A stretch of DNA of 64,000 nucleotides, taken from Nemertoderma westbladi. Lineage: Eukaryota > Animalia > Xenacoelomorpha. The stretch spans positions 1-64,000 of the forward strand of contig JAUCBJ010006769.1 of NCBI GenBank assembly GCA_032718475.1, in the 5' to 3' direction. The notes beneath the pieces are model-generated. The model saw only the letters and a list, made by a program, of their open reading frames with translations, was not told the DNA's origin and ran no database searches. The translations under genes were made by a program, and so were the position numbers. Positions 13,371 to 53,666 of the stretch are shown one piece after another (within the stretch, counting starts at the first letter, position 1; each line of letters begins with the position of its first letter).

Positions 13371-13468
13371 ATAATAACTAATAATCACGAACCCCATCCT
13401 CTTATAATATATAACTCTGTAGTAGTCAGTAGTAGTAGTAGTAATAGTAGTAGTAATAGTAGTAGTAG

Positions 13469-15569
13469 TGTTACGGTATATGGCGCTGTATCCATATTAT
13501 TAGTCATCATGCAGTATGCAATATTAGTCCGTTATACTGTACGTAATATTAGTCCGTTGTGCAGCATAATATTTTAGATAAGGCATAATGACGCAATGAT
13601 ATTTAGATAGGGAAATCGGAACGCCCATATATTTGCATCCATTTATTTTGTATAGTATGTAGCCCTACCTACGTAATTTTGTATTAGGTTATATGTAGAT
13701 AGTTCCAGGGTAAGTTTATTCGGACCCTGGATTCCGTGCTTGCTGATATTAGCTTTAGTAGGGCTAGCATATAGGGACGCCGTCCTGGCCATTCAGTAGC
13801 CAGAGACGTGAACCATTACCATATATGGTAATAATTTGAGCAATAGGGCTACAATCCGGCCTCCTTATTGGATTAACTGCTTCCAGGTTGGTCTAATGCT
13901 AGCATGGACTGGAGAGCCAATAGGAGAGCGATTGAGTCACCCTATTGCATCATCCCACCCGGATCACCTATAAATTGGCGGTGTGCCGGTAGAGCCTGTT
14001 ATCAATCTCTCACTCACATGACACATTCTCACTGCTGTTGAGCTGTCTCTAATTTTGTATTAGGATATCGTACTTTCTGCAATTTGCTAATTTGATTTTT
14101 TTCGTGAAATGATTTGCTAGTGCGATTACTTGCTTGTGTTTCTCAATAATTCCTTCGATTACTGCTAATTACAATTGAACTATGATTTCTACTCTTTGAT
14201 TAATGGTTCTATGTGATTCTTTTCTGCGCAATAATCCTAAGGGATTTCTGAGACTGTCAGACTTTGTGATTTGCATGCGCCGCTACGGTAGCTATTAGCA
14301 TAATGGAGGGCTAAGGTGCCAGTGGGCGATGGGCTCATCGGGGGGTTAGCGACGAAGGGAGTGCGGAGGATTCAAAAGCGGGCAACGCTGGCGGGGGTCA
14401 ACGTTGTGGTCGGGCAGTTTGGACTGTGGGTTGGAGACCGCTCGCCGGTACAGTAATTAGGGGGCTGATGATCCAAGGTTTTGTCTCTATTTAGTATTAG
14501 GGGGCAGGAATTGGGTTAGTTAGGAAGCCTAGATGTACCCGGGAGGGGCCTGCATACCTTACAGTAAGTAAGTAAGGGGGTAAGTACGTAAGTAAGTTGC
14601 GAATTATATAATTGCAGATTGTATAATTGCAAGTCGTGCTATTGTGATCCGTGATTGCTGACTCTGATTGATGTGTTACTAAAGTGTGCCTAAGATTACG
14701 AATGCTTAGATAGGCGCTCTTTTCCCTTTGATTGATTTCTATCTCTTAGTTTACTGTAAATAATTACTGATTAGGTCAAAGTAATACAGTATTTTAGGCT
14801 GTTACATATTTGTGACTGTAATTAATTAGTAAAATTAAGAATTAGTACGCAGCATAGCGGAGAGTAGCTAAGGTAATAATTAGAGTACCGTAAACTATTC
14901 ACGCTGAGCGGTTATTTGAATTAGCGGGCAATAAACTAGATCGCAATAGTTAGTACGCAAGACACTAGTAAGTTGCTGGCCTAAAGCCAGCTGCAGGCAA
15001 GTTTAGACCCAGAGCGGTAACACCTACGAAAGACATTGTACTGTATCATTTTGATTATTTTAAATATTCTCGCATTCACACATTCCGTTAGGGAACCCTC
15101 AGTATTCGCGATTAGAAAAGACGTAAGCATTGGCGTATTTCAGTAGTAAAATTAGGCGTAAGAATATACTCTGAGTGCAAAGCCCCTCGCACTCGTCTTA
15201 AGTAAGCTTAGGGAGCCGACTCGGGTTTATTGTTTTGGTTATTCCCGCGTGGCTCATAGATTCGAACAGTTAGCTCTCTATCGAGCGATCGGTAGAGAAA
15301 GGAACAAGCGATTTTGCAGGAGCTGTGTAAATTTAGTAAAATATATTAGCGGACGGCAGATTAGCGCCATCCAACGGTAAGTAGCGGTTTTGTATTTAGC
15401 AACCCTTACAATTTAGTAATAGCACACTCCTGATCCCCTTTACTTAACAGTAGAGCAGTCTTTGTGTCTTATTGGTTAGGCGAGAGCTCATTAGGTTGGC
15501 AGAGAGGTATACGGGTATTTGTCTGTTCAACAGTTCTGCTGTTAGTATAGGTGTCGCGGTTGTTTAACA
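13469..15569 (+). repeat. 5' LTR of element A
   Basis: Direct repeat of 27895-29995. Only two mismatches seen by eye (13644/28070 and 14329/28755). Confidence 0.98.
13860..14010 (+). promoter_or_regulatory. Putative LTR Pol II promoter (CCAAT boxes + TATA)
   Basis: ATTGG ~13867, AGCCAATAGG ~13915, CCTATAAA ~13967. The LTR of B has the same layout (CCAATAAG twice at 51083/51143, TATATAAAG ~51010, minus). Confidence 0.5.
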
Positions 15570-16812
15570 GTAAGGTATGTGTTATTGTCTGCTGTAGGCC
15601 TACCGCGTACAGTAGGACATAGAGTATATTCTTAGGCCGTGAAGATTTAGATTTACTGATACTTCGTAACAGTAAGGTATGTATTTTGTTTTTCTGTACT
15701 GCGTACAGTAAAGTAAGATTAAGATTACTGTATTAGGCACTGTACTGCGTACAGTAAGACATTAAGTATATTCTTTTAGGCTGATAGTTTAGATTACTGT
15801 ATTCACTGGCTGCGTACGATAGTACAGTAGTACATTAGGCTGATTGCTGTTACTGCGTACGGTAGAAGGACATTTGTTTGCCGTACCACACACACAGTAT
15901 CATTAGGCTGTTAGGTTGGTGTACTGTTTTACTTACTGTACTGCGTACAGTGGATGTACGATAGTGCGTTTTTGCTAATTGCGAATACAGCAGTTCCTTG
16001 GGCTTTAGGGCGAATTGTAATTAGTAAGTTTTTTGAAATTTTAGCTAGGTTTGCGAGAATTCAGTTTCGGTCAAAATTATTTTGTAAAATTCTAGAGTTT
16101 TGTACCGGTATGTTAGGTAACCGTTTAGTTATTTTATACCATCTGGAGATACATGGCAAGACGGAACTTCTGAGTTTGGGGTTCGTGTGGGTCTGCGGGT
16201 TCGGTTTGCAATCAGCGAAGGGACTGAATCTTTGGACGCGGACGTGGAATCTCACAGCAAACAAGGTTAGTTGTTCTGTTGGCACCACTGTGTTTGTGGA
16301 AGCAGTAAAAAATTACCGGTTGTTTAACTGCGAAGCTGAACTCAATTTATTAGTTAGGATATTTAGGTTTAGCCGGCCATGGTTTTTTGAATCGCTCAAG
16401 TTAGAGAGAGAGTTAGAGAGAGTCGCAACCCGAAGATGTAGCCACGCGCTAGTGGATACATATAATATTTGAAACTAAAATTACGTTGATTAGAGCTATA
16501 TATATATAAAATTAGAAATATTCAGGTGGCAAGTATATTTTGAATATTTTGTATTAGATTCAGAGTTATTTTGTGCTATACCGGTATTTAATATTATATA
16601 GTAGCTATATAATAATATTTTTGTTTAAATATTGTGCTAGTATTTGCTATAACTATATACCCCATTAAATTCACAATATTGCATTGCGAATTTATTTGAC
16701 ATTTGGACCAACTGATTATTTGACAAATAATTTGACCGTATTTCGGTTAAATTATAATTATATCTCGAACTTTTGCGAGATATTTTGCCGGAAGGCAAAC
16801 ATTATTTAGACT

Positions 16813-19800
16813 ATGAGTGTCTCAGACAAGGAGGCACTAGAGGACAGCTATGAGACGGCGGCTGGACCGCCGACTGACGATAGCGTAAACATTACTGTTG
16901 ATGACAATGCCGACTATGACGACGCAGCGAGCGACGCTGACGTAAGTGAACAGGAGGACGAGACAGTGACTAGTGAGGAAGAACAACAACCTCAAGTAAT
17001 AGTATTAGGATCCCCTACCGCTACTGTAAGAAAGGACTGCACAGCAGCCCGGACAGAGGTGAGTGATAGGGAGGGTAGTGTAGCAGAAGCGAGAGCCCGG
17101 AGCCCGGTTTCCAGACCTGTGGGTATGGTAAGTGCCGTGGTCCCAACGGCTGTTAGGAGTACCCGTAGTTCCCGAAATAATCCTTCAAGTCCACCGAGTG
17201 TGAGTCAGGTAAGCGAGAGAGAACTTGATATCGCGATAAAGAAGAAACTTCGCGCGCACGCCGGACATATAACTCGGACGACGGACAAGGTAAGGAAGAT
17301 GTTAGCCGACTCAGCGAACATCGGACGGGAAGGGTTAGTAGAGATTAGAAGAGGATATAACTCAGCGTTATTCAAGCAGACGGAGGAGCTTGCAGTCCTA
17401 GCGAAGAAGGCAGTAGAGTCTCAGTCGAGCGACGTGGCGACGAGGATTTACGACAGGGTTTTAGCAGCCTTGTTGGAGCACCGCGAGTTATCGGAGCGAT
17501 TCCGACGAGTTAGGACGGAGAACTGGCTGCTATGGGCATCACAAACGCAGGCGACTCAGGTGAGTGACGCAGATTTAAGAGACTTAGTGGAGCGGGAAGA
17601 GATCCAAGATAAGGAAGAGCGCCGGTATCAAAGGGAAGTTACTAGCTGGCTGATGCAGAATGGAGTGGTGGTGCCGGGCCAGGTGCTACCGACGACGGAG
17701 AACATCCAACAGAGGACGTTGACTCCACCCGACGATGCATCCAGAGACAGCGGCGATTCCCAGGTTAGTCACGCGCGAGGGAAGGTTATATGTGCTAGAT
17801 CCCTTGTTTCTCACAACTCGGCGGAGGAGAGAAGACGCCGACTAGACGAACAGCAGGCGGAAGTTTTGCGTGCACAGGAAGCACGGAAGGAAGCCGAGCG
17901 GGAACGGGAGCGCACACGTAAGTTAGACGCAAAGTTGCGAGAGTTGGAAGAAAAAGGTAAGCGTGAGCAAGCGGAACGCGAACAGGAAGAACGCGAACTT
18001 CAACTTCAACGCGAACAGGAAGAACGCGAACTTCAACTCCAACGCGAACGCGAAGAACGCGAACTCCAACTCCAACGCGAACGCGAAGAACGTGAACTTC
18101 AACTTCAACGCGAACGCGAACGGGAAGCTAAGGAATGCGAGCAAAGAAGACGCGAACTCCAACTCGAACGCGAGCGCAAGGAGCGCGAACTTGAGCGCGA
18201 GAGGGAGCGACGGGCGTTGTATGAAGAGAAGGCGCGTGTGGAAGAAGAGGGCGCAGCGAGACGAGCGAGGGAAGAAGAAGAACGTAAACTGGCGCAGTTG
18301 GAAAGTGCGAGATTAAGTTTAGAGAGCGAAGAACGGACTAGGAAGGCGAACGAAATCGCCGAGAAGGGGATGCGAATGATCGAAGAATGTGGGGCGAGTG
18401 TAGGGACAGAGTTGCGAGAACTGTTCGCACTGCAGAAGGCCGAACAGGAAGCGAGAACTCCGACCATACGCGAGTCGACGACGACCAGAATTCCTATACC
18501 CGGTCCAGCTATTACGAGTACACGGATCGCTAAACCGTTCTCTACATATCGCACGCCGGTTGGTATTGGTGCTTCACCCATCGCTCAGGATCCACGTCAT
18601 CGGAACACCGCACCACTATACACCGAACGCGAGAACGAAGAGTTTAGAGAAACTCCGACGGGCCAAGTATTTGGCGAACCGAACCCGCGGGTTTGGATTA
18701 CGCAGACGGAGCGCCGACCCAGTTCGACGGAGAACTTCCGGGTTAAACCGGAAGAGGGATCATATGAGAGACAGCGGATTACTCAGATAGAGCCGACTAT
18801 ACAACAGAACCCTAGCCAGGAATTTATTACGAGGGATGAGTTAAGTGCTAGTTTAGCGCAAGCTATATCGCCACACATCCAACCTATAACGGACATGCTT
18901 AGCAACCTACGGTTAAAGGAAGCAGCCCAGGTAAGAAGTAATTCAAATCCTAGCAGGCCTGAGTTAGATAAAGTCCAGCCTAGTCAACGAGTACGCATAT
19001 CGGAGGAAACTATACCACATAGACCTCAGGTAAGGACGCCTGTCCCGAATATTCATAATCCCAATTTCGAAAATTCGGCCGAGAAATTTATTCAGGATGC
19101 TTGGGTCAGGGCCTCGGCGCGCAAACCATCGCGAGCGCTAAGGACTGACACCGAGTCAAGCGATGAAGAGGAAGACATGAGACGTCAGAAGTCCCGAAAC
19201 TATAAGGAAAGAAGGACCGACGCGGAGCAGGTAAGTTGGAACCACCGGGAAAGGACCAGACTTAACAACCCTGCGGAACTAAACCATTTGTTAACCCGGA
19301 ACGACGCAACCCTTAGAGACATAGGTAAGTTTGCTGCTAGGCAAGGACTGCCGACGCAACAACCCCAGAAGTTTATGGGTAACCATAAGCATTGGAGGAC
19401 CTTCAAAACCTATGTCGACGAGCAGCTAACCAACAGCACCTTTACTCCCAACGAGAAGTTCAACTATTTGCTTCAGATGCTCCATCGAGAACCTAGAGCC
19501 ATTGCTGATAACTTCGTCGGCAATGAGAGGGCATTTGAGCTAGCGATGAAGACACTTAGTGACATCTACGGGAATAAAACCAAGATGGCGCAGTCGATAG
19601 TAGAAGACTTGGGTAAGGGCGGAAGGATTACAACTCCGTTAGAGCTGTTGAACTTAGCGAACGCTATTTCGAACGCATTGGACATCTTGAGGACGGTAAA
19701 TCTACCTCATCATGGTGATCACGCCGAAGTTTTAAAGAGCGTAATAAGACGTCTAAACATGCGTTACCGACAGAAATGGCGCAAATTAGAGAATAAGTTG

Positions 19801-22800
19801 GAGGGCCAAGGTAAAGTATTGACACTTCAGCATATTCATGACATGATAGCCACAGACGCAGTAGCAGAGATGAAATCAAACTTCTCAGAAGAGAATATGA
19901 GAGAGTCTAAACCTGTTACCGGTAAGTCTATGGTAAGTTTTGACGACGACAGGACCACTGTGACATTTAACTCAGTAGACAGATATAATTCGAGTACCCC
20001 AGCCTTTAGATCAGACTCGCGAGTATGGTCAGGTGAGCGGTTAGATAGACCTAGGTTAAAGCAACAGGAGTTGCCGGATGGATTTGCAGGTTGCCAATAC
20101 TGCTTACTAAAGGAGGTAAGATCTGACGACCATAAGTTAGATAGTTGCAGACGGTTCAAAGAATTAAATTCGGAACAGAGAAGAGTTCAAGTGCGGACGT
20201 TGGACACCTGTTGGGCATGTCTTGCGCCAGGTCATGTACGGCGGCAGTGCCCGAACAGCAAGGACGGATGCATGGAATGCGGCAGACTACATCACAAGTT
20301 GCTACATGCGGATTTCCACACCCCAACGGACCGTTACTTACAGCGAAATCCTCACAGGAAGGGGAGCAAAGAACCCGTATCGATAAGGAGGAATACGTAC
20401 ACTGGCATCCAGGACGATGGTTACCAACCAGGTTCGTCGGACGAGGATGGCGAGTCGAGCGCGAGAGAAGTGACCTGCCAAGGTTTCACCGCGGATAGTT
20501 CATCGACCAGCGCGCGGACGTATTTATCATCGGCCACGTCGGAAATATTTAGCGTGATTCCGGTGAAACTCACTGGCGATAAGGGATCGAAGCGAATATA
20601 TGTGATGTTGGACACTGCGTCCACATTATCCTATATCGACGAGGAAGTGGCGAGAGCCGTTTCTAGCTTCCAGGACGCCGAGGAGATCCAAATAGAGTTG
20701 AAGTCTATGCATGGGGTAGGAGACCTCAATGGACACAGAATTTCGGTGGAACTAGATTCCCTACTTCCGAGAGACCAACACACTCGACAAGAATGGAAAG
20801 CTTTGCCATTGGACGGATTTAAGTGTCTAGCTATGAAGGGATTCGGCAGGCAGTTAGGTAAGGTGCCGCCGATGAGTCCCATAGCACAGGAGTATTTTGA
20901 CAAGCTCAGGATACCCAGACACCAGGTAGGTTATAGGAATGTTTCTATGTTGATTGGTGCAGAACAGCTGATCGCACACCAAATATGGGAAACGAGACCA
21001 GCTGAGCCGCATGTCAATGGACCACATGCCCATAGGACTATACTAGGTTGGTATACAAGAGTACCCATGTCTTATGAGTTTACAGGTGGCGACAAGCCAA
21101 CAAACAGATACGACGAATTACAGCCTATAATTCAACCACCGTTAGTAGAACCACCAGACATAGACGAGTTTAGGAGAACCTGTATTGACCACTATAGTGA
21201 CTTTAGCGAGTCGGACGAGGAGTTGATTCCCGATAATGTTAGGTTGTCGGAACCACTTCATAATGACCGGACAGATAGTGAACCCGAGGACTACTGTTAT
21301 CAGACCCGTGGGTCTGGTTCAACGGTCCACGCTACCTATTTGACTAACGTTTTGACTTATACAGACATAGTGGAGGGTCAAGTGGCTAAATATCGAGACC
21401 TAGACATTTTCCAATACAGTGAGGAGGAATTACAGAAGGAATTGATACGCCAGGACCTCGAGACAGGAGCCAGAACCGTCGAATGGCTGGATAGGGACGC
21501 AATGGAACCCGGTGGATATGACCTAGCCATGTCTACTGATGAGAAACGGTCGCTGGAGATGATGGAAGACACCATACGTCTGCTACCGACTGGACATTTT
21601 GAAGTTGGAATGTTGTGGCGTCGACAACCACCTAAGTTGGAGAACAACTACAGCTTAGCCTTGAAAAGATTAAACGGAGTAAGGGCTCGGTTGTTGAAGA
21701 ATCCGGACATTAGGGAGAAGTATTGCGCCCAGATCAACAACTATTTCGCCAAGGGATTTGCTGGGAAGGTAGAGGACCCTGACTTAGTGACAGACCAGAC
21801 TTATTACCTTCCACACCACTATGTGACTCACCCTGACAAGCCAGACAAAGTCCGAGTAGTCAACGACTGCGCAGCAGTCTATAGAGGTATGTCCCTGAAT
21901 TCAGAGTTGATGGATGGTCCCAACCTGAACAATTATTTGATAGGAATACTGTTGCGTTTTAGACAGCGGCGATTCGCATTTACTTGTGACATCGAGGCGA
22001 TGTTCCACCAGGTAAGAGCCTGTAAGGCAGACCAGGATAGCCTTCGATTTCTCTGGTTTGAGAATGAAGACTTATCCGGCCCAGTGGTTACATACCAAAT
22101 GTACGTTAGGATATTTGGCGCCCGCGATAGTCCAAATGGCACGCTGTTTGTTCTAAAGAAAACGGCAACAGCCCAGATTGGTAAGTATCCAGTAGAAGTA
22201 ATCGAGTCCATCTTGAGAAACTTCTATATGGACGACGGATTGGTGTCCAAGGACACGGCGGAACAAGCCATAGAAGTGGCTCACGGCCTGCAAGAGTGCT
22301 TGGCTACAGGGGGTTTTCCTCTGACCAAGTTCACTACGAACTCGGAGGCCCTATTAGAGTCGTTCCCGGTAAAAGATCGCGGGAGCGGAGACATAGAATT
22401 GGGGGTAGAACCAATCCCCATGGCGCGAGTACTGGGACTCGCTTGGAACCCGAACTCAGATAAGTTCCAGGTAAGAGTTAGATTTGAGCCCAGTAGCCCA
22501 GACAAAGTTTTGACAAAGAGAATTTGCTTATCGACTTTAAGTAGACTATTTGACCCGATGAACTTTATCAGTCCGGTTATATTACAGGCACGAGCGTGCA
22601 TGAGGAAAATTTGGTTGTCCGACGTAGAGTGGGACGAACCAATATCTCCTATACATGCAAAGCAGTGGAGGGAGTGGGAAGCCGAGTTGCATCTATTGAA
22701 AAACATAGATGTACCCCGTTCCTACTTTCCGAATCAGCTGGTATTTCCAACTGATTTAGAGCTGCACCTATTTAGTGACGCAAGTGACACCGGCTTTGGT

Positions 22801-25200
22801 ATGGTAGCCTACCTTCGCCGAGAGGTAAGTCAGGACAAATTTGAGACGGCCTTTGTGACTTCTAGATCAAAGACAATGCCGGTCAAATACATGACTGTCC
22901 CTCGTGCAGAGTTACAGGCGGCTGTAGTTTCGGTCGAGGTAAGTAAGCAAATAACTGAGGAGTTAGACACGACATTGACCTTATTCTATTGGACGGACGC
23001 ATCCTTGGTGTTAGTATACATTGCGGCCGACAATATTGCACTAAAGACATTTGTGGCCAACAGACGCGCTCAGATCGTTGACTTTTCGACGAAGGAACAA
23101 TGGAGACATTGTCCGGGAGTGTTAAACCCGGCCGACATAACTTCGAGAGGTGCAATGCCGGCGGAATTCTGTCAGGAAGAGTCGCAGGAGTTTTGGTTGC
23201 ATGGACCTGATTTTCTAACGAGGACGCAGGAACATTGGCCAGAGCGACTAAAGATTGTGACCAATCCGATGCCTGAAGATGCAGAAGTCAAAGTGGAGAA
23301 AGTCTCTAAGTCAAAGTCTAAAGCCAAACTTAAGTCATTGGAGCGGCCTGAAGAGTCATTGGAGCGGCCTGAAGAGTCATTGGAGCGGCCCGGAGACCTG
23401 TCAGACCAACAGACTTACGTGACTACTAGGTCCGGAAGGGTAAGTTATGACATCAAACCACCCTTACAGACTAAACCGGAGTCACAATTGGTAAGTGACG
23501 GACAGAAAATGACCGACACAATGGAGTCTTTGGTTTCCAAACCTGCGGGTTTGGATTCGAAACTTCCATTAGTTAGCGGACAACCGTCGCTGGCATTAGA
23601 GCCATGTAGTATTTATGACAAATTACTAAATTCGTCTGCCTCTTGGCTGACAATTTGTAAAAGAACTGCGTGGTTAAGCCGATACATTTTGTACCTTTGT
23701 TTAAAACATTCGAAACATTTGAGAGAACCATTGAGCACCAATAGTGAGCGAATTCGGAAATTGAAACAACCTCTGACAGAGGATGAGATTGATCAAGCGG
23801 AATTAAAGCATTTGAAACATTATCAAATGTGTGCCTTCCCTAAAGAATTCCATCTATTATCGGCTCAACGACCAGTTCTCTATAAACCCCTTAGAAAATG
23901 GAGTCCATTAATCCATAAGGGTTTAATTTGTCATAGATCGAGAATCCAGACTGTCGACATAAACTCACAGTTTCGGTTCCCAGTGATAATCCCTAGTCAC
24001 CCAATAGAATTGCAAAGAGCGATTCTATGGGATATACACAAGAGGTTGCATCACGCGGGAAAGTTACACTGTTTGTCGGCAGCGAGACAGCGATTCATTC
24101 TATTGCAGCCAAGCAGGGCAGTCGGCACTATGTACGACGCCTGTCTGGTTTGCAAGAGGGTGAACGCCAGAGTATTGGAACAGGAGATGGCTGAACTCCC
24201 GGAAGCGAGAGTGCAGGCATATAACCCACCCTTTACGAACACAGGGGTGGATTGTTTTGGTCCGATTGAAGCAAAGAGTGGACGGCTGACCCATAAGCGA
24301 TGGGGTCTGCTACTGACATGCATGGCTAGTAGAGCCATACACATCGAGCGTGTGGCAGACATGTCGACCAAATCTCTGCTCCTGGCCTTGAAGAGATTTA
24401 TGGCCAGGAGAGGACTAGTAAAGGCGTTCTACTCTGACAAGGGTACAAACTTTGTCGGAGGGAATAGCGAGTTGAACGCGGCTCATAAAGCAGCACAGAA
24501 TAAGGAAATTTCTGCAGCACTTTTGCCGCAACGAGTAGAATGGAGATTTAATACTCCAGAAAGTCCTTGGAGAGGAGGAAGTTGGGAGCGTTTAGTTCGC
24601 TCTGTAAAGCAGGCCATTGCCAAAACATTGCCTGTAAACAAACAACTTACCGACGACGAACTGGTCACAGCTTTCATTGAAATCGAGCATACCCTAAACT
24701 CGAGGCCGATAGCTATGTTGCCAGACGGTGTTGCATTAACGCCGAATCATTTGCTAATGCAGAGTCCAGCATTTCTTGTGCCGGCATCAGAACCCATTAG
24801 TGCCGACCTATATAGTCGTAAAAGCTGGAAAGTAACACAGTTTGTGGCGTACACATTCTGGGAATATTGGCGGGAATACTATCTTCCCACCATATCCACC
24901 AGAACAAAGTGGTACAAAACGGTTCGGAGTCTCCAAAGGGGAGATTACGTATTGATAACCGAACCTATTGTCAAGAGAAAGTATTGGGAGACGGGAGTGA
25001 TCTTGCACACACACCCAGACGTGCAAAACATAGTGCGCACAGTCACTGTGAAAATTAGGTGCAAGTGTCCGCACCCAAAAAAGTGTAAAACTAATGGTTT
25101 ACACACCTTGGACCGACCGGTCCAAGATATCGTGTTATTAGAGGAGACACGTATCGAGACGGGAGATTATAGTTTGTCTCCTGCCTCAAAACAGAATTAG
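16813..25200 (+). CDS. BEL/Pao gag-pol polyprotein (Gag with triple Zn knuckle, aspartic protease, RT, RNase H, integrase)
   Basis: CWACLAPGHVRRQC and CMECGRLHHKLLH; MLDTAS; YLPHH...DIEAMFHQV...FYMDD; FSDAS; NPADITSRG; HHAG..CLVC; DCFGP, SDKGTNF, WERLV. Confidence 0.98.
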   Translation: MSVSDKEALEDSYETAAGPPTDDSVNITVDDNADYDDAASDADVSEQEDETVTSEEEQQPQVIVLGSPTATVRKDCTAARTEVSDREGSVAEARARSPVSRPVGMVSAVVPTAVRSTRSSRNNPSSPPSVSQVSERELDIAIKKKLRAHAGHITRTTDKVRKMLADSANIGREGLVEIRRGYNSALFKQTEELAVLAKKAVESQSSDVATRIYDRVLAALLEHRELSERFRRVRTENWLLWASQTQATQVSDADLRDLVEREEIQDKEERRYQREVTSWLMQNGVVVPGQVLPTTENIQQRTLTPPDDASRDSGDSQVSHARGKVICARSLVSHNSAEERRRRLDEQQAEVLRAQEARKEAERERERTRKLDAKLRELEEKGKREQAEREQEERELQLQREQEERELQLQREREERELQLQREREERELQLQREREREAKECEQRRRELQLERERKERELERERERRALYEEKARVEEEGAARRAREEEERKLAQLESARLSLESEERTRKANEIAEKGMRMIEECGASVGTELRELFALQKAEQEARTPTIRESTTTRIPIPGPAITSTRIAKPFSTYRTPVGIGASPIAQDPRHRNTAPLYTERENEEFRETPTGQVFGEPNPRVWITQTERRPSSTENFRVKPEEGSYERQRITQIEPTIQQNPSQEFITRDELSASLAQAISPHIQPITDMLSNLRLKEAAQVRSNSNPSRPELDKVQPSQRVRISEETIPHRPQVRTPVPNIHNPNFENSAEKFIQDAWVRASARKPSRALRTDTESSDEEEDMRRQKSRNYKERRTDAEQVSWNHRERTRLNNPAELNHLLTRNDATLRDIGKFAARQGLPTQQPQKFMGNHKHWRTFKTYVDEQLTNSTFTPNEKFNYLLQMLHREPRAIADNFVGNERAFELAMKTLSDIYGNKTKMAQSIVEDLGKGGRITTPLELLNLANAISNALDILRTVNLPHHGDHAEVLKSVIRRLNMRYRQKWRKLENKLEGQGKVLTLQHIHDMIATDAVAEMKSNFSEENMRESKPVTGKSMVSFDDDRTTVTFNSVDRYNSSTPAFRSDSRVWSGERLDRPRLKQQELPDGFAGCQYCLLKEVRSDDHKLDSCRRFKELNSEQRRVQVRTLDTCWACLAPGHVRRQCPNSKDGCMECGRLHHKLLHADFHTPTDRYLQRNPHRKGSKEPVSIRRNTYTGIQDDGYQPGSSDEDGESSAREVTCQGFTADSSSTSARTYLSSATSEIFSVIPVKLTGDKGSKRIYVMLDTASTLSYIDEEVARAVSSFQDAEEIQIELKSMHGVGDLNGHRISVELDSLLPRDQHTRQEWKALPLDGFKCLAMKGFGRQLGKVPPMSPIAQEYFDKLRIPRHQVGYRNVSMLIGAEQLIAHQIWETRPAEPHVNGPHAHRTILGWYTRVPMSYEFTGGDKPTNRYDELQPIIQPPLVEPPDIDEFRRTCIDHYSDFSESDEELIPDNVRLSEPLHNDRTDSEPEDYCYQTRGSGSTVHATYLTNVLTYTDIVEGQVAKYRDLDIFQYSEEELQKELIRQDLETGARTVEWLDRDAMEPGGYDLAMSTDEKRSLEMMEDTIRLLPTGHFEVGMLWRRQPPKLENNYSLALKRLNGVRARLLKNPDIREKYCAQINNYFAKGFAGKVEDPDLVTDQTYYLPHHYVTHPDKPDKVRVVNDCAAVYRGMSLNSELMDGPNLNNYLIGILLRFRQRRFAFTCDIEAMFHQVRACKADQDSLRFLWFENEDLSGPVVTYQMYVRIFGARDSPNGTLFVLKKTATAQIGKYPVEVIESILRNFYMDDGLVSKDTAEQAIEVAHGLQECLATGGFPLTKFTTNSEALLESFPVKDRGSGDIELGVEPIPMARVLGLAWNPNSDKFQVRVRFEPSSPDKVLTKRICLSTLSRLFDPMNFISPVILQARACMRKIWLSDVEWDEPISPIHAKQWREWEAELHLLKNIDVPRSYFPNQLVFPTDLELHLFSDASDTGFGMVAYLRREVSQDKFETAFVTSRSKTMPVKYMTVPRAELQAAVVSVEVSKQITEELDTTLTLFYWTDASLVLVYIAADNIALKTFVANRRAQIVDFSTKEQWRHCPGVLNPADITSRGAMPAEFCQEESQEFWLHGPDFLTRTQEHWPERLKIVTNPMPEDAEVKVEKVSKSKSKAKLKSLERPEESLERPEESLERPGDLSDQQTYVTTRSGRVSYDIKPPLQTKPESQLVSDGQKMTDTMESLVSKPAGLDSKLPLVSGQPSLALEPCSIYDKLLNSSASWLTICKRTAWLSRYILYLCLKHSKHLREPLSTNSERIRKLKQPLTEDEIDQAELKHLKHYQMCAFPKEFHLLSAQRPVLYKPLRKWSPLIHKGLICHRSRIQTVDINSQFRFPVIIPSHPIELQRAILWDIHKRLHHAGKLHCLSAARQRFILLQPSRAVGTMYDACLVCKRVNARVLEQEMAELPEARVQAYNPPFTNTGVDCFGPIEAKSGRLTHKRWGLLLTCMASRAIHIERVADMSTKSLLLALKRFMARRGLVKAFYSDKGTNFVGGNSELNAAHKAAQNKEISAALLPQRVEWRFNTPESPWRGGSWERLVRSVKQAIAKTLPVNKQLTDDELVTAFIEIEHTLNSRPIAMLPDGVALTPNHLLMQSPAFLVPASEPISADLYSRKSWKVTQFVAYTFWEYWREYYLPTISTRTKWYKTVRSLQRGDYVLITEPIVKRKYWETGVILHTHPDVQNIVRTVTVKIRCKCPHPKKCKTNGLHTLDRPVQDIVLLEETRIETGDYSLSPASKQN

Positions 25201-25939
25201 TGTTGGACGCAACTCACTTCGTATGCATTCCTCGTATGCAAATACAAGGAAATGCATAGGAGCGGGGTTGTGGTGATTTGCGTTGAGTTTTGTCTGGTGG
25301 GTATCAAAACAAAATTTTATTTTCAAAATTTTTGGAAAATTAGAAAATTTTAAAAATTAGAAGTGAACCCAAGACAATTCCAGACGCTGTGTATAGACGC
25401 GTTTTAGAATTCGTCTATAGATAAACAGTAATTTGAAAAGTCGTGAAGCCTGGAAAATAGCATTTAGAAACCATGGTGACGGCTATATTACGTAGGAGTG
25501 TAAATTGAGTTTAGCAACTTCCACAGATTGGTGCCAACAGTGCAACTAAGGTGCTAAAGGTTAGTAGCACCAGAGGCGTACATGGACCCCACTCAGTAGT
25601 TTGCAGGATGTGTGATGTTCGATTATCAAACCTGTGGGTTTGGTATAGTCGAGTATTGTGGCTATAGTCCTTTCTAACTACTGTAGTTTAGTAACGAGTA
25701 ATGGGAGTAGTTTGGGCATCAAAAAGTGAGTTGGTCACGGCCAGTTTATCTCCAAACTTTTTGCGCTATGCATGGGAATAGGTTAGAGAATAGTTAGTTA
25801 GGAAGAGACGGGATCTAGAGAGTCGAACCTGAACTGCTGGAAGGCGGGGGGGTTCGGGAGGTCTGTCCTTCGGCGACATCTAACTGATTACCCACAGTGT
25901 AATTGGTTTGCGTAACGGAACACTTATTGGGATATATAT

Positions 25940-27024
25940 GTATATACGCGGGGCGTAATAGAGAAGGATATTAGAGCGCAACCGCGCAGGGGATTTACTG
26001 CCAGAGAGGAGGCGGAGTTACCATTCGCGCGACCGGGATGTAAAGATTCGAACGTTTACTACCATGGGCGGTCGGTGATGGAGCTAAATGGGAAATACAA
26101 ACCCACGATTCCCGACCGACTAGACGAGCAACATCCAGAACCGATATTAACGCGTTGTCAAGCTCACCAGTTCCTTAGATATAACGAGGGAGGTTACCCG
26201 ATGAGCGACCCGATGATCAGTATCGACTTCGGCGAAAGCGACCTCCGAGACCCATTACGCCGACCGTTACGACTTTAGATCCGTATACAGAGATTAAACC
26301 TGTTCGACACCCGCTTTGATAGACACGGCGGCGGCCATTTCGCTATACCGAGCCTATAAAGACCTAGAGGCGCGGCGCGAAGCGGTACGGGACTCGAGTT
26401 CCTGGACCACGTTCACTTCGCTTCACCAGGAGAGGAAGGTCACGCCTGAGTATCCAGGCGAGATTCGCGCCGTCCATCCGTCTACTAACTATACCCACGA
26501 TCCGCGGTTTATACGATATTTACTCCAAATTATTTCGGGAAGTTTCGACGAACGCATTATTAAGCCCGAATATGTCCAATCCTTTATATATCATCGTCGC
26601 TCTGATATATACGTCTAGATTTATTACCCAGCGCACAATTGGCGGCCTAAGGAGACTCGTTTGGGGTCATTGACCTCTGAACGAGTGGAGGATCAGGACC
26701 GCCGCGCCCACAGCGACAACAGCCGGAGCTCACAGCTCGCGGCAAGTACCAGAAGGAGGAGTCCTTGGCAAGCGTCAAGCCAAGGACGAGCAGTTCTATT
26801 CGACGGTTGAAGAAAAGGAGTTGGCGGAGGCGCCCACAGGGACACGGCAAATGGGACGAGGCCGAGGGAGGAGCACCAGTCAGGAGATAGTCGGTGCCCA
26901 GGGAACGTCGTCGCCGGTTCCGGGAAGTGACGCCTCAAGGACGCCGTCAACAGAGTCTACAGGGGGTAGACTGGTGTATCTGGAGAAGGGAGCGAGCCCG
27001 AGAGACCCAGGAGCTAGCCGATGA
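25940..27024 (+). pseudogene. Decayed accessory ORF of element A, homologous to 52230-54544
   Basis: Homologous blocks PRRGFTAREEAELPF, PEPILTRCQAHQFLRYNEGGYPMSDP, SLYRAYK, HDPRFIRYLLQI and GRGRGRST, split by stops and frameshifts. ATA lies where B has ATG. Confidence 0.8.
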
Positions 27025-27887
27025 GACTATAATATCACGGAGCGACAAACTCTAGACATATACATCATCGTCGCTCTGATGTATATCGTAGGTTTTGATC
27101 AATCATTCGACTGGACTCATATACACTAGTCGTATCCATATTTTAGAATTTTATTTTCGAAGGCCGAAAAATATTGAAAGGAAATACTTTATTTTGTAGT
27201 CCGATTGGAAATAGTAAATACTTTAACTATATTTGATTTTGTGTATATGACTTTATTTGCTCTAAAGTTTATTGAAAGAGGCAAAGGAAGTGATTGGGGA
27301 GACAAACCCGCGGGTTTGGCTTACTCCTATCACTTACCTGAGCAATCATCAAACCAAGATGATTTGCGCTTTTATAAGAAATTAAGTAAAGTCCGAAAAT
27401 GAAAGAAATTATTACGTATTTTATATTTAGTTTGATTATCGGCCTTTAATGCAATTTAGTTAAAAATTTAGCCTCAAATACGTTTATATTTAGTTTATCT
27501 TGTTAATGTTGATCGTTAATTTGAGATGGGAAATGGGGGACATTGTCCTAGCCATGTTCCATTTCAATAGGTAGACAGTCAATTTGTAAATAAATAAAGG
27601 AAGTAATATTTTTGTAATTTAATTTTGTATGTAGTAATCATTATGTAGAACGAATGAGAAACAGTATTTTGTAAATTTAATTTGTATGTAATAATCGTTA
27701 ACAGTGAGAGAGATAATATTTTGTAATTTTAATTTGTATGTAAATTCATTATGCAATATCTATGGCAATATTTGTAAATAGTAGAATTATTATGTTATTT
27801 AGATTGGTTGGAAGAAATTTATTTTGTTTTGTATACATCACCTTATACTCTTCTACAATTGGAGGGAAACATTGTATGATTTCCCTT

Positions 27888-27894
27888 GGAGCGG
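27888..27894 (+). other. Plus-strand priming tract (GGAGCGG) of element A
   Basis: Directly abuts the 3' LTR TG. The same heptamer abuts the LTR of B (51421-51427). Confidence 0.7.
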
Positions 27895-29995
27895 TGTTAC
27901 GGTATATGGCGCTGTATCCATATTATTAGTCATCATGCAGTATGCAATATTAGTCCGTTATACTGTACGTAATATTAGTCCGTTGTGCAGCATAATATTT
28001 TAGATAAGGCATAATGACGCAATGATATTTAGATAGGGAAATCGGAACGCCCATATATTTGCATCCATTCATTTTGTATAGTATGTAGCCCTACCTACGT
28101 AATTTTGTATTAGGTTATATGTAGATAGTTCCAGGGTAAGTTTATTCGGACCCTGGATTCCGTGCTTGCTGATATTAGCTTTAGTAGGGCTAGCATATAG
28201 GGACGCCGTCCTGGCCATTCAGTAGCCAGAGACGTGAACCATTACCATATATGGTAATAATTTGAGCAATAGGGCTACAATCCGGCCTCCTTATTGGATT
28301 AACTGCTTCCAGGTTGGTCTAATGCTAGCATGGACTGGAGAGCCAATAGGAGAGCGATTGAGTCACCCTATTGCATCATCCCACCCGGATCACCTATAAA
28401 TTGGCGGTGTGCCGGTAGAGCCTGTTATCAATCTCTCACTCACATGACACATTCTCACTGCTGTTGAGCTGTCTCTAATTTTGTATTAGGATATCGTACT
28501 TTCTGCAATTTGCTAATTTGATTTTTTTCGTGAAATGATTTGCTAGTGCGATTACTTGCTTGTGTTTCTCAATAATTCCTTCGATTACTGCTAATTACAA
28601 TTGAACTATGATTTCTACTCTTTGATTAATGGTTCTATGTGATTCTTTTCTGCGCAATAATCCTAAGGGATTTCTGAGACTGTCAGACTTTGTGATTTGC
28701 ATGCGCCGCTACGGTAGCTATTAGCATAATGGAGGGCTAAGGTGCCAGTGGGCGGTGGGCTCATCGGGGGGTTAGCGACGAAGGGAGTGCGGAGGATTCA
28801 AAAGCGGGCAACGCTGGCGGGGGTCAACGTTGTGGTCGGGCAGTTTGGACTGTGGGTTGGAGACCGCTCGCCGGTACAGTAATTAGGGGGCTGATGATCC
28901 AAGGTTTTGTCTCTATTTAGTATTAGGGGGCAGGAATTGGGTTAGTTAGGAAGCCTAGATGTACCCGGGAGGGGCCTGCATACCTTACAGTAAGTAAGTA
29001 AGGGGGTAAGTACGTAAGTAAGTTGCGAATTATATAATTGCAGATTGTATAATTGCAAGTCGTGCTATTGTGATCCGTGATTGCTGACTCTGATTGATGT
29101 GTTACTAAAGTGTGCCTAAGATTACGAATGCTTAGATAGGCGCTCTTTTCCCTTTGATTGATTTCTATCTCTTAGTTTACTGTAAATAATTACTGATTAG
29201 GTCAAAGTAATACAGTATTTTAGGCTGTTACATATTTGTGACTGTAATTAATTAGTAAAATTAAGAATTAGTACGCAGCATAGCGGAGAGTAGCTAAGGT
29301 AATAATTAGAGTACCGTAAACTATTCACGCTGAGCGGTTATTTGAATTAGCGGGCAATAAACTAGATCGCAATAGTTAGTACGCAAGACACTAGTAAGTT
29401 GCTGGCCTAAAGCCAGCTGCAGGCAAGTTTAGACCCAGAGCGGTAACACCTACGAAAGACATTGTACTGTATCATTTTGATTATTTTAAATATTCTCGCA
29501 TTCACACATTCCGTTAGGGAACCCTCAGTATTCGCGATTAGAAAAGACGTAAGCATTGGCGTATTTCAGTAGTAAAATTAGGCGTAAGAATATACTCTGA
29601 GTGCAAAGCCCCTCGCACTCGTCTTAAGTAAGCTTAGGGAGCCGACTCGGGTTTATTGTTTTGGTTATTCCCGCGTGGCTCATAGATTCGAACAGTTAGC
29701 TCTCTATCGAGCGATCGGTAGAGAAAGGAACAAGCGATTTTGCAGGAGCTGTGTAAATTTAGTAAAATATATTAGCGGACGGCAGATTAGCGCCATCCAA
29801 CGGTAAGTAGCGGTTTTGTATTTAGCAACCCTTACAATTTAGTAATAGCACACTCCTGATCCCCTTTACTTAACAGTAGAGCAGTCTTTGTGTCTTATTG
29901 GTTAGGCGAGAGCTCATTAGGTTGGCAGAGAGGTATACGGGTATTTGTCTGTTCAACAGTTCTGCTGTTAGTATAGGTGTCGCGGTTGTTTAACA
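27895..29995 (+). repeat. 3' LTR of element A
   Basis: Direct repeat of the 5' LTR, followed by the TSD. Confidence 0.98.
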
Positions 29996-52229: not shown

Positions 52230-53666
52230 TTATCGCTTAGTAGATCGAGCCCTGCCGCGTCCTCGAAAACTGCGCACAGGTGACTTTGCTCGCGATATGG
52301 GACTAATGGGGCGAGTCACTGGTTTACTTGGGACGTTGAGAGACGGTGCGACTATTTCCTCACAAATTCGTCTATTTGGCATCCCAAAACCTCGACCAAT
52401 TCCTCGTGACCGATCAGTTGTGGCTACAGTCGGTAGAACGTCTGGGAACGCGTGAGAAGCGGACGACGCAGACCCAAGAGTAGCTTGCGCCCCCTGTTGA
52501 TCAGCTGGTGTATGTCCCGATCCTCCTACCGGTTCTCTTGGAAGTGATACCGTATCCCGAGTAACTCGAATAGTCGGCTCAACTCCCTTACGTTCTTCCA
52601 CATTAATAATTTTCTTCAATTGTTGGCCCACCTTCTGGACCCGTATGATCCTACCCTGCCCGTCCTCCCGAGGGTGACGTGCAGACGGCGCAACCGGAGT
52701 GGCTGGTATATTCGTCGCCTCTAGGACCTCTTCTTCCTCGAATACGCTCGCTCGTATACGTTTATGGTAAAACGCGGCTCGGTACGCCCATGCGACGGTT
52801 AACCAAGCTCCTTTATTCCGCTTTTCGGTTCGGAAACGATCAAATTCACCATACGTGATACGATTTACGACTTTCTGAAAATTCCACGTGTTCTTGTTAT
52901 CCGGGTGAATCTGTAACAGATACTCGCGCACCACTCGGAATCCGCTGTCGTGGGGCAAAATATCAACAACCTCGATAAGTTCGTCATATTGGGGCATAGC
53001 GGAGATATATCCTTCCGACATCATCGTCTGAGGATTTACCGCCCAAAATCCGAGATGCGCTCTCATCGGAAACCGTCTTCTCTGTGCCGATACATGTTCG
53101 TCGGCTAAATCTTCCCACTCATCAAATAACTTCCTCACGAGTTTTACAGATTCGTGTTCATAAGGTATGTCTCTCAGTTGGCATTCAGATGCTCGATGTC
53201 CCTTTATATTGCAGTAAGTACATTGAGCCATAAATCTCCAGCAAGTATAAAAGGTATGAGACCCTTGATCCCCACACCATCCACAGATTAGCTGAGTCGT
53301 AGTAATGTGCTTTCCACTGCACTTTGCCATATGATGTCCAGCGACGCCACATTTACTACACATCGTATTAGCAGGGTACCACACTCGTTCGTATATAAGA
53401 TCTCCAATCGGTCGAGCGCTTCCTCCCATACTATAATCGTAATCATCTGGGTCTATGGGTTGGTAGGTTTCTGAAGGTTGTATACAAACTATAGCATCTG
53501 TTGCTTCGAGTTGTCGAATCTCCGTCTGAGATTTCTTCGGGAGGTTCCTTTCTATCTCAAGAAGTTCCTCTAAAGGATCGTCGGCGATCGTAGTAGTTAC
53601 GTTGAATTCATCACCAAGGTGACCGATAGGCGCACGCGTCTGCCGTGATTCATCCGTAATCTCCAC
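52230..53666 (-). CDS. Accessory protein, C-terminal part: three CCHC-type knuckles and an RG-rich basic tail
   Basis: CSKCGVAGHHMAKC, CGWCGDQGSHTFYTC, CTYCNIKGHRASEC; RGRGRARS. Overlaps the upstream ORF, so probably one frameshifted gene. Confidence 0.75.
   Translation of the reverse strand: MEITDESRQTRAPIGHLGDEFNVTTTIADDPLEELLEIERNLPKKSQTEIRQLEATDAIVCIQPSETYQPIDPDDYDYSMGGSARPIGDLIYERVWYPANTMCSKCGVAGHHMAKCSGKHITTTQLICGWCGDQGSHTFYTCWRFMAQCTYCNIKGHRASECQLRDIPYEHESVKLVRKLFDEWEDLADEHVSAQRRRFPMRAHLGFWAVNPQTMMSEGYISAMPQYDELIEVVDILPHDSGFRVVREYLLQIHPDNKNTWNFQKVVNRITYGEFDRFRTEKRNKGAWLTVAWAYRAAFYHKRIRASVFEEEEVLEATNIPATPVAPSARHPREDGQGRIIRVQKVGQQLKKIINVEERKGVEPTIRVTRDTVSLPREPVGGSGHTPADQQGAQATLGSASSASHAFPDVLPTVATTDRSRGIGRGFGMPNRRICEEIVAPSLNVPSKPVTRPISPISRAKSPVRSFRGRGRARSTKR

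Follow-up and report, generated by a model that had tools for sequence, protein, structure and literature searches.

Two LTR retrotransposons, here called A and B, in a 64,000-nucleotide stretch of Nemertoderma westbladi DNA (the window) raise the question whether the noncoding regions on either side of gag-pol pair with each other in the transcript, and what such pairing might serve. The locus bears on how large LTR elements with extra genes divide their transcript between genomic and subgenomic functions, and on whether simple chain statistics can detect such panhandles in other elements. A sequence-only reading had proposed one helix per element, bracketing gag-pol. Both helices are present where that reading had placed them, gag-pol is bracketed in both A and B, and the complementarity around them is larger than had been claimed, extending over chains of helices. 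A selected long-range duplex in the sense RNA, looping out gag-pol, is well supported and in our judgment probable.

Layout of the two elements

Element A spans 13469-29995 on the + strand; it is an LTR retrotransposon of the BEL/Pao group, and a young one, with this organization.

13469..15569, + strand: 5' LTR of A, with TGTTA...TAACA ends
15570..16812, + strand: 5' leader of A, 1243 nt from the LTR end to the gag ATG at 16813
16813..25200, + strand: gag-pol ORF of A, 2795 codons plus stop, the part that would be looped out
25937..27360, + strand: remnants of a third ORF (ORF3) of A in three frames, detected by tblastx against ORF3 of B
27895..29995, + strand: 3' LTR of A

The LTRs form a direct repeat of 2106 nt (99.86% identity to 27894-29999), and AGTAG at both flanks represents a short target duplication, which is ambiguous because it sits within a (TAG)n run. 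Pfam matches in A comprise Peptidase_A17 (3.4e-39), DUF5641 (3.8e-16), DUF1759 (4.4e-09) and Integrase_H2C2, and those in B comprise DUF5641, DUF1759 and Integrase_H2C2. Both elements thus show the pol domains and the DUF1759-bearing gag of BEL/Pao, and A also has the TG..CA direct repeats and target duplication of the group. At 16.5 kb with 2.1-kb LTRs, A exceeds the size ranges given in the ICTV profile of Belpaoviridae (4.2-10 kb, with LTRs of 0.2-1.2 kb; PMC8742986). Since these ranges are descriptive rather than rules of membership, we file A as an unusually large member. The same profile places the primer binding site (PBS), 18 nt matching tRNA-Arg or tRNA-Gly, close behind the 5' LTR (PMC8742986). 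When A was searched for a PBS, the 237 nt that follow its 5' LTR proved free of TGG, which leaves its priming unexplained. The first 10 nt behind this LTR are complementary to LTR positions 14553-14562 (about 0.1 such matches would be expected by chance); a promoter-like context was looked for at this self-priming lead and none was seen.

Element B, on the - strand, is a diverged and damaged relative of A that is cut at position 64000, so that its 5' LTR falls outside the window.

63233..64000, - strand: 5' leader of B, cut by the window end; carries the 5' strands of the helix chain
55211..63232, - strand: gag-pol remnant of B, read as two ORFs that are separated by about 1.2 kb of additional sequence
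52230..54664, - strand: ORF3 of B, which occupies two overlapping frames and encodes three CCHC zinc knuckles

Missing from the gag-pol remnant is the counterpart of A residues about 1420-2214 (RT/RNase H). ORF3 of B starts with its own ATG, at the place where A carries ATA, and a comparison of ORF3 with the protein atlas returned only weak zinc-knuckle look-alikes (score at most 0.87). Because A is young by its LTR identity and yet has a defective ORF3, its lineage must have moved without ORF3 in cis. Relatives were found in metagenome contigs at 10 loci (35-39% identity, at most 7.7 kb); the best of them, L002, is not comparable in layout, since its leader is only 70 nt long. Viral contigs contained neither a relative at the protein level nor a match to the conserved noncoding block described below.

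Complementarity between leader and pol-ORF3 spacer

The complementary regions of A and B are listed here.

16102..16404, + strand: 5' arm of A, with strands 16164-16189, 16267-16287, 16292-16301, 16335-16350 and 16370-16396
25450..25656, + strand: 3' arm of A, with strands 25459-25485, 25500-25515, 25519-25528, 25529-25549 and 25579-25602
16267..16287, + strand: core 5' partner of A, from the helix originally reported
25529..25549, + strand: core 3' partner of A, in the pol-ORF3 spacer
25708..25756, + strand: conserved block of A, reading TAG, TTTGGGCATCAAAAA, GTGAGT...CACGGCCAGTTTA, with 55 columns in common with B
63555..63568, - strand: 5' partner of the helix reported for B
63771-63757, 63663-63644 and 63568-63555 among others, - strand: 5' strands of the B chain, in the leader
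54733..55059, - strand: 3' strands of the B chain (55059-55046, 54978-54959 and 54883-54869 among others), in the pol-ORF3 spacer

In A, the core helix (16267-16287/25529-25549) has 19 Watson-Crick pairs, one U.G and one U.U among its 21 positions. Around this core, leader and pol-ORF3 spacer are complementary over about 300 by 200 nt. A simple local alignment of the two arms as DNA recovered nothing but the core, because the loops between helices are long and unequal, and the analysis relied on co-folding and helix chaining instead. When A 16100-16420 was folded with 25440-25660 in RNAcofold, 116 intermolecular pairs were predicted, in helices of 23, 20, 10, 16 and 25 pairs plus small ones. 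The net energy of -41.6 kcal/mol compares with -6.4 ± 2.5 for 100 shuffled partners (z = -13.9) and with a mean of -7.1 and a best value of -17.6 for 29 natural 221-nt windows of A. The 5' arm begins about 530 nt behind the 5' LTR and the 3' arm starts 250 nt behind the pol stop, with 9.2 kb separating the partners. The far partner had been assigned to the 3' untranslated region; its actual place is the spacer that separates pol from the third ORF, with a further 2.3 kb between it and the 3' LTR.

The helix reported for B (63568-63555/55059-55046) has 13 Watson-Crick pairs and one G.U among 14 positions. Here the 3' arm starts 151 nt behind the pol stop, again upstream of ORF3, and the region of its 3' strands includes the B copy of the conserved block (54801-54749). 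Several helices of the B chain are A/T-rich, and the energy gain on co-folding was ordinary (-11.2 versus -7.4 ± 2.9, z = -1.3).

A comparison with shuffled untranslated regions, which the sequence-only reading had named as its chance check, favored the A helix and both chains, and left the B helix by itself at chance level. With the A leader (15570-16812) set against the 2694 nt behind pol, the reported helix was the best ungapped helix, its score of 45 being reached by 3 of 300 shuffles (mean 34.5, SD 2.9). For B, the single helix is no better than chance, since its score of 32 lies below the shuffle median of 34. Chains of collinear helices between leader and spacer scored 196 in A (shuffles 71 ± 23) and 184 in B (54 ± 19.5), values reached by 0/200 shuffles each. 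In four other settings of the chain test, no shuffle out of 50 reached the real score in seven of the eight tests and one did in the eighth; a gapped local-alignment version gave 1/300 for A and 0/300 for B.

The signal was also specific in position and in partner. Swapping arms between the elements brought the chain score to the null level (49 for the A leader with the B spacer, 48 for the B leader with the A spacer), and the leaders set against the reverse complement of the spacer gave 47 and 51. When each element was tiled, only the window holding the 3' arm scored high, both in A (173 versus 27-99; 15 windows of 715 nt) and in B (152 versus 24-78; 23 windows of 546 nt).

Covariation, strand and family variation

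Between A and B, neither the leaders nor the spacers can be aligned, one 55-column block excepted. This block, 82% identical between A 25708-25756 and B 54801-54749, is the sole noncoding stretch alignable between the elements, and it joins the outermost helices of the chain (outer helix 16172-16181/25750-25759). A hairpin within the block was considered and rejected, its consensus fold being weak (-4.6 kcal/mol) and covariation absent.

That pairing is kept despite sequence change, as had been claimed, is borne out by the collinear chains, by the null cross-controls and by the core helices. When the latter are anchored at their shared CCA/TGG, seven of the 14 pairs are unchanged, four have changed on both sides and still pair, two have changed on one side and still pair, and one is mismatched in A; this covariation rests on n = 2, because only two lineages are comparable.

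The bias toward G.U over A.C was 13:1 in the helices of A and 10:1 in those of B, an excess that is partly built in because the search score for these helices rewards G.U. Under strand-symmetric scoring, the ratio was 10:0 in collinear helices and 28:19 in the remaining, non-collinear matches; a strict ungapped symmetric search left only three G.U versus zero A.C. In B, the antisense chain dropped to 45, a score reached by 27 of 60 shuffles, and the signal is thus confined to the sense strand. The antisense strands of A pair about equally well in energy (-45.9) and their chain stands above shuffles (83 versus 37 ± 13, 0/60), so that A alone cannot separate RNA from DNA.

Family-copy variants avoid the helices. 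The 33 variants at a share of at least 5% within 15950-16550 all lie outside helices 16267-16287, 16292-16301, 16335-16350 and 16370-16396. Within helix 16164-16189, the variants 16166 A>G and 16184 C>T each change a Watson-Crick pair to a wobble, and those at 16175 and 16176 fall in its bulge. Helix 16370-16396 showed a 1-nt deletion variant at 16383, in one contig each of runs X3 and X5. Both 5' partners had been described as ending in CCA followed by CTGT, which is true of the copies in the window and not of the family: C at 16288 is a minority letter, with G at 71-74% and T at 21-29% of contig depth (runs X1 and X3). In run X5, cover of A was uneven and low in central gag-pol, a pattern from which we draw no conclusion, since the parts of an element cannot be ranked by contig depth.

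Candidate functions and known systems

Splice-like motifs, scored by a crude consensus, lie close to the paired strands. In A, a donor-like AAG/GTTAGT (16265/16266) abuts the core 5' partner, and the acceptor-like ttccacAG, whose last base is 25526, stops two bases short of the core 3' partner; B lacks a matching acceptor-like AG at the equivalent position. In B, a donor-like TGG/GTGAGT lies at 63622/63621, and 63621-63611 is a second complement of 55060-55050 (10/11). Among the 15 of 49 read joints listed for reads on 13400-30100, no leader-to-spacer joint was present, and the loose-end letters of run X5 at 16265 and 16268 matched nothing in the window with up to three mismatches allowed.

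Looping-out of gag-pol for expression of an accessory gene, one of the roles suggested by the sequence-only reading, agrees best with the layout, given that pol and ORF3 flank the 3' arm; the function itself we infer. Control of ORF3 splicing or expression is accordingly our tentative first choice, falling somewhat short of an even expectation, with replication or packaging second. In the sense transcript, the leader and the pol-ORF3 spacer would pair through collinear helices, with gag-pol looped out, and such a duplex presumably forms in RNA in the cell. The donor-like motifs of A and B each begin a stretch complementary to the 3' partner, and the duplex may act on this leader donor, either masking it or bringing it beside acceptors ahead of ORF3. 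A single transcript could then have two alternative fates, as the genome and gag-pol mRNA on the one hand or as the mRNA for ORF3 on the other. This large BEL/Pao lineage might even carry an undescribed kind of cis-element, a multi-helix duplex exceeding 100 bp that encloses gag-pol in a 9-kb loop, covers the donor and acts as an RNA switch between genome/gag-pol mRNA and ORF3 mRNA, a reading that we put forward as conceivable rather than likely. It would also set the capped leader beside the zinc-knuckle ORF3. If so, other large LTR elements that carry additional ORFs may commonly work in the same way.

The strongest rival has the same sense-RNA duplex serving replication, in packaging or dimerization of genomic RNA or in template movement by reverse transcriptase; we consider this unlikely, though a serious contender. 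All structural evidence for the duplex applies equally to such a role, for which Ty1 CYC5/CYC3 cyclization and the U5-gag interactions of retroviral packaging signals provide models. The arms are kept in copy A despite its defective ORF3, and this young element with a defective ORF3 fits replication at least as well as splicing. Moreover, use of the donor at 16265 would place the 5' partner inside an intron and so confine the duplex to unspliced RNA. However, unlike in the known cases, the 3' arm lies outside both the 3' end and the initial few hundred nucleotides, its place in the pol-ORF3 spacer is constant in A and B, and the duplex shows no tie to PBS or PPT.

An improbable alternative is action in translation, with ribosomes or initiation factors bypassing gag-pol on unspliced RNA by a shunt-like mechanism or by factor delivery. 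Parallels are ribosome shunting over the leader of caulimoviruses and, in plant RNA viruses, translation enhancers at the 3' side that base-pair with the 5' end. The geometry here would suit such a role, with the leader brought beside the spacer about 400 nt ahead of where ORF3 begins. However, we know of no precedent for a bypass of 9 kb, and third ORFs of retroelements are usually reached by splicing.

Slightly less probable still is an inverted repeat at the DNA level without any RNA role, that is, a foldback or a relic of inverted duplication or rearrangement around gag-pol. The antisense behavior of A, equal in energy and above shuffles as a chain, agrees with this explanation. Against it, the arms are discontinuous and differ in length (about 300 versus 200 nt), the regions of A and B are unalignable and yet each is self-complementary with null cross-controls, G.U exceeds A.C, and the B signal is sense-only. 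A neutral relic is unlikely because it would have decayed, yet complementarity is kept in both elements; furthermore, the LTR pair shows that the arms are not remade perfect in each cycle. As a separate candidate, terminal inverted repeats of a foldback or DNA transposon were rejected: the arms are internal to an LTR element, and their flanks (AAGG / GGTG) show no duplication.

The proposal of a tRNA-end or PBS mimic, in which the partner ending in CCA would prime cDNA on the partner beginning with TGG inside the element, is unsupported and very unlikely. Both 5' partners do end in CCA and both 3' partners begin with TGG, and priming of A lacks another explanation. On the other side, ARAGORN found no tRNA genes and Rfam no matches in the window, neither partner adjoins an LTR or occupies the place of a PBS, CCA/TGG falls midway in a much longer duplex, the letter after CCA varies across the family, and the B partner lacks what we take to be the G+C-rich look of an acceptor/T-arm. 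Chance complementarity, or an artifact of A/T-rich, run-rich composition, might account for the single B helix and for several A/T-rich helices of the B chain, but it is largely refuted, and hardly credible for the whole, by chains that none of 200 shuffles matched in either element, by the null result with the like-composed untranslated regions of the other element and by the A co-fold z of -13.9.

Control by long-range pairing of RNA has been demonstrated in Ty1, in retroviruses and in RNA viruses. We know of no description of it for Belpaoviridae: none of the 10 papers listed by a literature search on long-range RNA structure in Bel Pao elements contained the name Bel Pao, and the terms inverted, PBS, splic-, secondary structure and zinc are absent from a BEL/Pao survey (PMC3118150). 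The ICTV profile terms replication of the family "poorly understood" (PMC8742986). A duplex bracketing gag-pol, co-evolving in two lineages with dissimilar untranslated regions, would offer a directly testable handle.

Among known systems, the Ty1 CYC pair is a single short stretch in a Ty1/copia element, whereas the BEL/Pao elements here have at least five helices and more than 100 predicted pairs. According to PMC7969010, CYC5 and CYC3 are distant complementary stretches, one of them 5', that are required for cyclization, and genetic studies are cited there for the base-pairing. The likeness lies in far-apart complementary stretches of an LTR retrotransposon RNA, one in the 5' region; the difference is that CYC3 lies at the RNA 3' end and the 3' arm here is internal, between pol and ORF3. 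Genome circularization in the Ty1 sense, also suggested originally, therefore fits poorly, since 2.3 kb separate the 3' arm from the 3' LTR. The Ty1 pair, which is needed for reverse transcription, has its 3' partner at the RNA 3' end and its 5' partner beside the PBS, a layout that differs from that of A, whose 5' arm begins about 530 nt behind the 5' LTR.

In the packaging signals of MPMV, MMTV and FIV, a phylogenetically conserved leader stretch is likewise reported to pair with a distant stretch (U5-gag) in the service of genomic RNA function. The two partners are confined there to the 5' portion of the RNA (for FIV, the 5' 511 nt); here they are 9.2 kb apart, and the loop of about 9 kb closes behind pol.

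Retroviruses and env-bearing LTR elements share with A and B the order leader, gag-pol, third ORF and a donor-like motif in the leader, and their third ORFs are as a rule reached by splicing out gag-pol. The ORF3 considered here differs in that its product is of the CCHC zinc-knuckle type and not env-like, and we know of no spliced third-ORF system with a bridging duplex of such size. The closest parallel in how the arms evolve comes from cellular splicing, where complementary segments kilobases apart are reported to lie near splice sites and to show compensatory change (PMC8052449, PMC10573301 and PMC12962786). Those conserved complementary regions and the Dscam1 docking/selector pairs belong to host pre-mRNAs with mapped splice sites, whereas a retroelement genome with motif-level candidate sites is at issue here. 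As in those systems, the arms of A and B show compensatory change, seen in 4 of 14 core pairs between two lineages.

Two related BEL/Pao elements

The DNA of the window is eukaryotic and rich in repeats. Element A, a young LTR retrotransposon, is a BEL/Pao element because its gag-pol frame carries DUF1759, Peptidase_A17, Integrase_H2C2 and DUF5641 domains. AGTAG flanks it on either side, and both its size (16.5 kb) and its LTRs (2.1 kb) are above the ranges of the ICTV profile of the Belpaoviridae, which gives 4.2-10 kb for elements and 0.2-1.2 kb for LTRs (PMC8742986).

Features of the window
921-9226, reverse strand: Helitron, ORFs with Helitron_like_N, PIF1-like helicase and DUF6570
13469-15569 and 27895-29995, forward strand: element A LTRs, 2.1 kb each, 99.86% identical, TGTTA...TAACA ends
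Directly behind the 5' LTR, forward strand: element A leader, 1243 nt
16810 (opening; ATG 16813) to stop at 25200, forward strand: element A gag-pol, single frame of 2796 residues
Post-pol region, forward strand: element A 0.7-kb spacer, then third-ORF remnants
25937-27360, forward strand: element A ORF3, homologous to that of B; defective, over three frames, ATA at B's ATG
52230-54664, reverse strand: element B ORF3, two overlapping frames, own ATG, three CCHC zinc knuckles, R/G-rich tail; nearly intact

Element B, on the reverse strand and truncated at its 5' end by the window edge at 64000, is a diverged relative which may be a non-autonomous derivative instead of a product of simple decay. 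It shares 65-71% nucleotide identity with A across four pol/gag segments and, at the protein level, 46% identity in the C-terminal 600 residues, a stretch that includes the integrase. It is damaged, having no counterpart of A residues about 1420-2214 (RT/RNase H) and about 1.2 kb of extra sequence between its two gag-pol frames. At 55211-59320 (reverse strand) it holds a single open frame of 1369 codons, with ~300 unrelated residues in place of the RT/RNase H part.

Rather than an env-like product, ORF3 in this family encodes a protein carrying three CCHC zinc knuckles, for which Pfam gives only a weak zf-CCHC match and the protein atlas no convincing relatives. Contigs from several sequencing runs depart from copy A into other letters at 26396, 27273 and 27319, and joints in run contigs skip 26625-27370 and similar spans; the ORF3 region of copy A is therefore rearranged relative to other family members.

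In the 237 nt behind the 5' LTR of element A (15570-15810) no TGG occurs, and hence a canonical tRNA primer site is not visible. The first 10 nt there (GTAAGGTATG) are exactly complementary to LTR positions 14553-14562 (~0.1 such matches expected by chance), a possible lead toward self-priming. Within gag, a 33-nt tandem repeat (17942-18199) encodes an E/R/Q-rich, coiled-coil-like stretch (REREERELQLQ). An open frame of the Helitron contains a 51-nt tandem array of ~20 units (7907-9175), and dense short tandem/inverted repeat arrays lie between the elements at 36260-37050, 12287-12618 and 41216-41619, with 22/30-nt units rich in TGAGGCA/TGCCTCA, 13-nt units and 24-nt units.

Complementarity between leader and pol-ORF3 spacer

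The sequence-only reading had described a helix bracketing gag-pol in both elements, and we found it in each. In A, 16267-16287 faces 25529-25549 over 21 positions (19 Watson-Crick, one U.G, one U.U); in B, 63568-63555 faces 55059-55046 over 14 (13 Watson-Crick, one G.U). Taken singly, only the helix of A stands out from shuffled sequence, being the best-scoring ungapped pairing of its leader with the post-pol region (score 45, matched by 3/300 dinucleotide shuffles); that of B, which ranks third with a score of 32, is under the shuffle median of 34 and would not count on its own. In both elements the 3' arm is away from the 3' end: it occupies the pol-ORF3 spacer and begins 250 nt (A) or 151 nt (B) downstream of the pol stop. 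The predicted duplex would therefore close a ~9-kb loop with gag-pol and bring the leader alongside the ORF3 region.

Among ungapped helices, the top three of A are collinear, and so are those ranked second to fourth in B, with 5' positions going up and 3' positions down. Co-folding of A 16100-16420 with 25440-25660 predicted 116 intermolecular pairs, including the following helices.

Helices of the element A duplex, predicted by co-folding
16164-16189 / 25579-25602, forward strand: duplex helix
16267-16287 / 25529-25549, forward strand: duplex helix, the reported core
16292-16301 / 25519-25528, forward strand: duplex helix
16335-16350 / 25500-25515, forward strand: duplex helix
16370-16396 / 25459-25485, forward strand: duplex helix

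The gain of this co-fold over separately folded arms was -41.6 kcal/mol, compared with -6.4±2.5 for 100 shuffled partners (z -13.9) and with a mean of -7.1 and a best of -17.6 for 29 element windows of 221 nt serving as natural controls. Since the gain in B was ordinary (-11.2 versus -7.4±2.9), we adopted a chain statistic, the summed score of collinear ungapped helices. Between leader and pol-ORF3 spacer the chain scored 196 in A (shuffles 71±23) and 184 in B (54±19.5); 0/200 shuffles reached either value, and both best chains include the reported helices. Under four other threshold/gap settings, 0/50 shuffles reached the score in seven of eight tests and 1/50 in the remaining one, and a gapped-alignment version gave 1/300 for A and 0/300 for B. 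As a whole chain, the pairing thus holds against shuffled UTRs in both elements, and chance complementarity is extremely improbable.

Cross-element chains scored at null (A leader with B spacer, 49; B leader with A spacer, 48), and leaders paired with the reverse complement of their own spacer gave 47 and 51. When the A leader was run against 15 tiled 715-nt windows, a score of 173 was obtained solely for the 3'-arm window (rest 27-99); for the B leader and 23 tiled 546-nt windows, the corresponding value was 152 (rest 24-78). The match is therefore particular to the two regions of the same element and does not arise from UTR composition.

Only a 55-column block aligns when the leaders and spacers of the two elements are compared, and each element has retained its own leader-spacer complementarity despite these otherwise unalignable UTRs. 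With 5' partners placed in register at CCA and 3' partners at TGG, 7 of 14 core pairs are the same in both elements, 4 have changed on both sides with pairing kept (A-U/U-A, C-G/U-A, U-A/G-C, C-G/U-A), 2 have changed on one side with pairing kept, and the remaining one pairs as A-U in B and is U.U in A. For these n = 2 sequences, the pattern is the one that selection on pairing would give; the doubly changed pairs and the null cross-element scores bear out the claim that pairing was kept while the sequence differs. That the arms are a DNA-level relic is quite unlikely: if neutral, the remnant of an inverted duplication in an ancestor would be expected to have decayed with the rest of the leader and spacer regions, and arms remade every cycle would be perfect in a young copy such as A, where they are imperfect.

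Strand preference and variation among copies

Within the helices, G.U outnumbers A.C by 13:1 (A) and 10:1 (B), under a search score that rewarded G.U. Strand-symmetric scoring gave 10 G.U and 0 A.C in collinear helices, compared with 28:19 in other, non-collinear matches, and a stricter ungapped symmetric search gave 3:0. On the antisense strand the B chain falls to 45, which 27/60 shuffles reach; the A chain falls to 83, still above shuffles (0/60), and the antisense co-fold energy of A (-45.9) is as good as sense. The evidence leans toward a structure of the sense-strand RNA, clearly for B and only mildly for A.

The element A family has many copies (23,659 contigs in run X1 and 9,383 in run X3 at a likeness of at least 90%; DNA runs, one organism). 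Four runs surveyed over 15950-16550 yielded 33 variant rows at a minimum share of 5%, none of them within helices 16267-16287, 16292-16301, 16335-16350 or 16370-16396. Between 16234 and 16445 four positions vary (16288, 16316, 16359, 16362), and the model leaves each of them unpaired; this is weak evidence, as chance would give the same result about 1 time in 7. Of the variants in helix 16164-16189, 16166 A>G and 16184 C>T make wobbles from Watson-Crick pairs, and 16175 and 16176 fall in a bulge. One X3 contig and one X5 contig carry a 1-nt deletion at 16383, which speaks against variants avoiding helices. At 16288 the majority letter G would add a G.U beside the core; because C is the minority letter there, the CCA followed by CTGT noted earlier is not a conserved motif. 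Metagenome relatives were rejected as a comparison, being too distant and having a 70-nt leader.

Splice-like motifs and possible roles of the duplex

Retroelements usually express a third ORF through splicing that starts at a donor in the leader. Scanning with a crude consensus, we found in A a donor-like AAG/GTTAGT at 16265/16266, immediately before the 5' partner, and an acceptor-like ttccacAG ending two bases ahead of the 3' partner, which has no counterpart at the corresponding place in B. The sole donor-like site by this consensus in the B leader is TGG/GTGAGT at 63622/63621, and B 63621-63611 is a second complement (10/11) of B's 3' partner, at 55060-55050. Two contigs of run X5, the type of which is a guess, track the leader to 16265 and one to 16268 before entering letters absent from the window; this break coincides with AAG/GTTAGT and is a lead only, as rearranged DNA copies would look alike. 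None of the joints listed runs across gag-pol.

The sole alignable non-coding block (25708-25756 in A, 54801-54749 in B; 82% over 55 columns) reads TAG/TTTGGG(C)ATCAAAAA/GTGAGT, then CACGGCCAGTTTA, and resembles a 15-nt mini-exon set between an acceptor and a strong donor. Its consensus fold is weak and without covariation, and a signal read as sequence would fit better than a hairpin. The B leader carries three ~48-nt repeats (63320-63440, reverse strand) with AAATYGGCCG, complementary to CGGCCAGTTT in this block (54775-54757); as such pairing would not nest within the main chain, it would represent either an alternative fold or a pseudoknot.

From positions and motifs, we tentatively propose that the duplex, looping out ~9 kb with gag-pol and placing the leader by the ORF3 region, either masks the leader donor or draws it near acceptors ahead of ORF3, which would tune the amount of transcript staying genomic. 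A role in replication or packaging ranks second and is less probable; in its favour, young copy A keeps its arms though its ORF3 is defective, and against it, the internal 3' arm is unlike both Ty1 CYC3 and retroviral U5-gag interactions as excerpted accounts present them. Use of the duplex for translational bypass is unlikely. The suggested tRNA-end or PBS mimic is disfavoured by zero tRNA and zero Rfam matches, wrong positions and a CCA/TGG mid-way in a long duplex, and is very improbable.

Our literature search for long-range pairing in Belpaoviridae, including the ICTV profile (PMC8742986), found no such report, and a term search gave 0 matches in PMC3118150. Long-range pairing in retroelement RNAs is an already known kind of structure; the duplex described here would be new for its size (several helices, >100 pairs), for joining the leader to the pol-ORF3 spacer, and for occurring in the Belpaoviridae. 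Compared with Ty1 CYC3, as described in the excerpted text of PMC7969010, A and B differ in having the 3' arm at an internal position, in the pol-ORF3 spacer.
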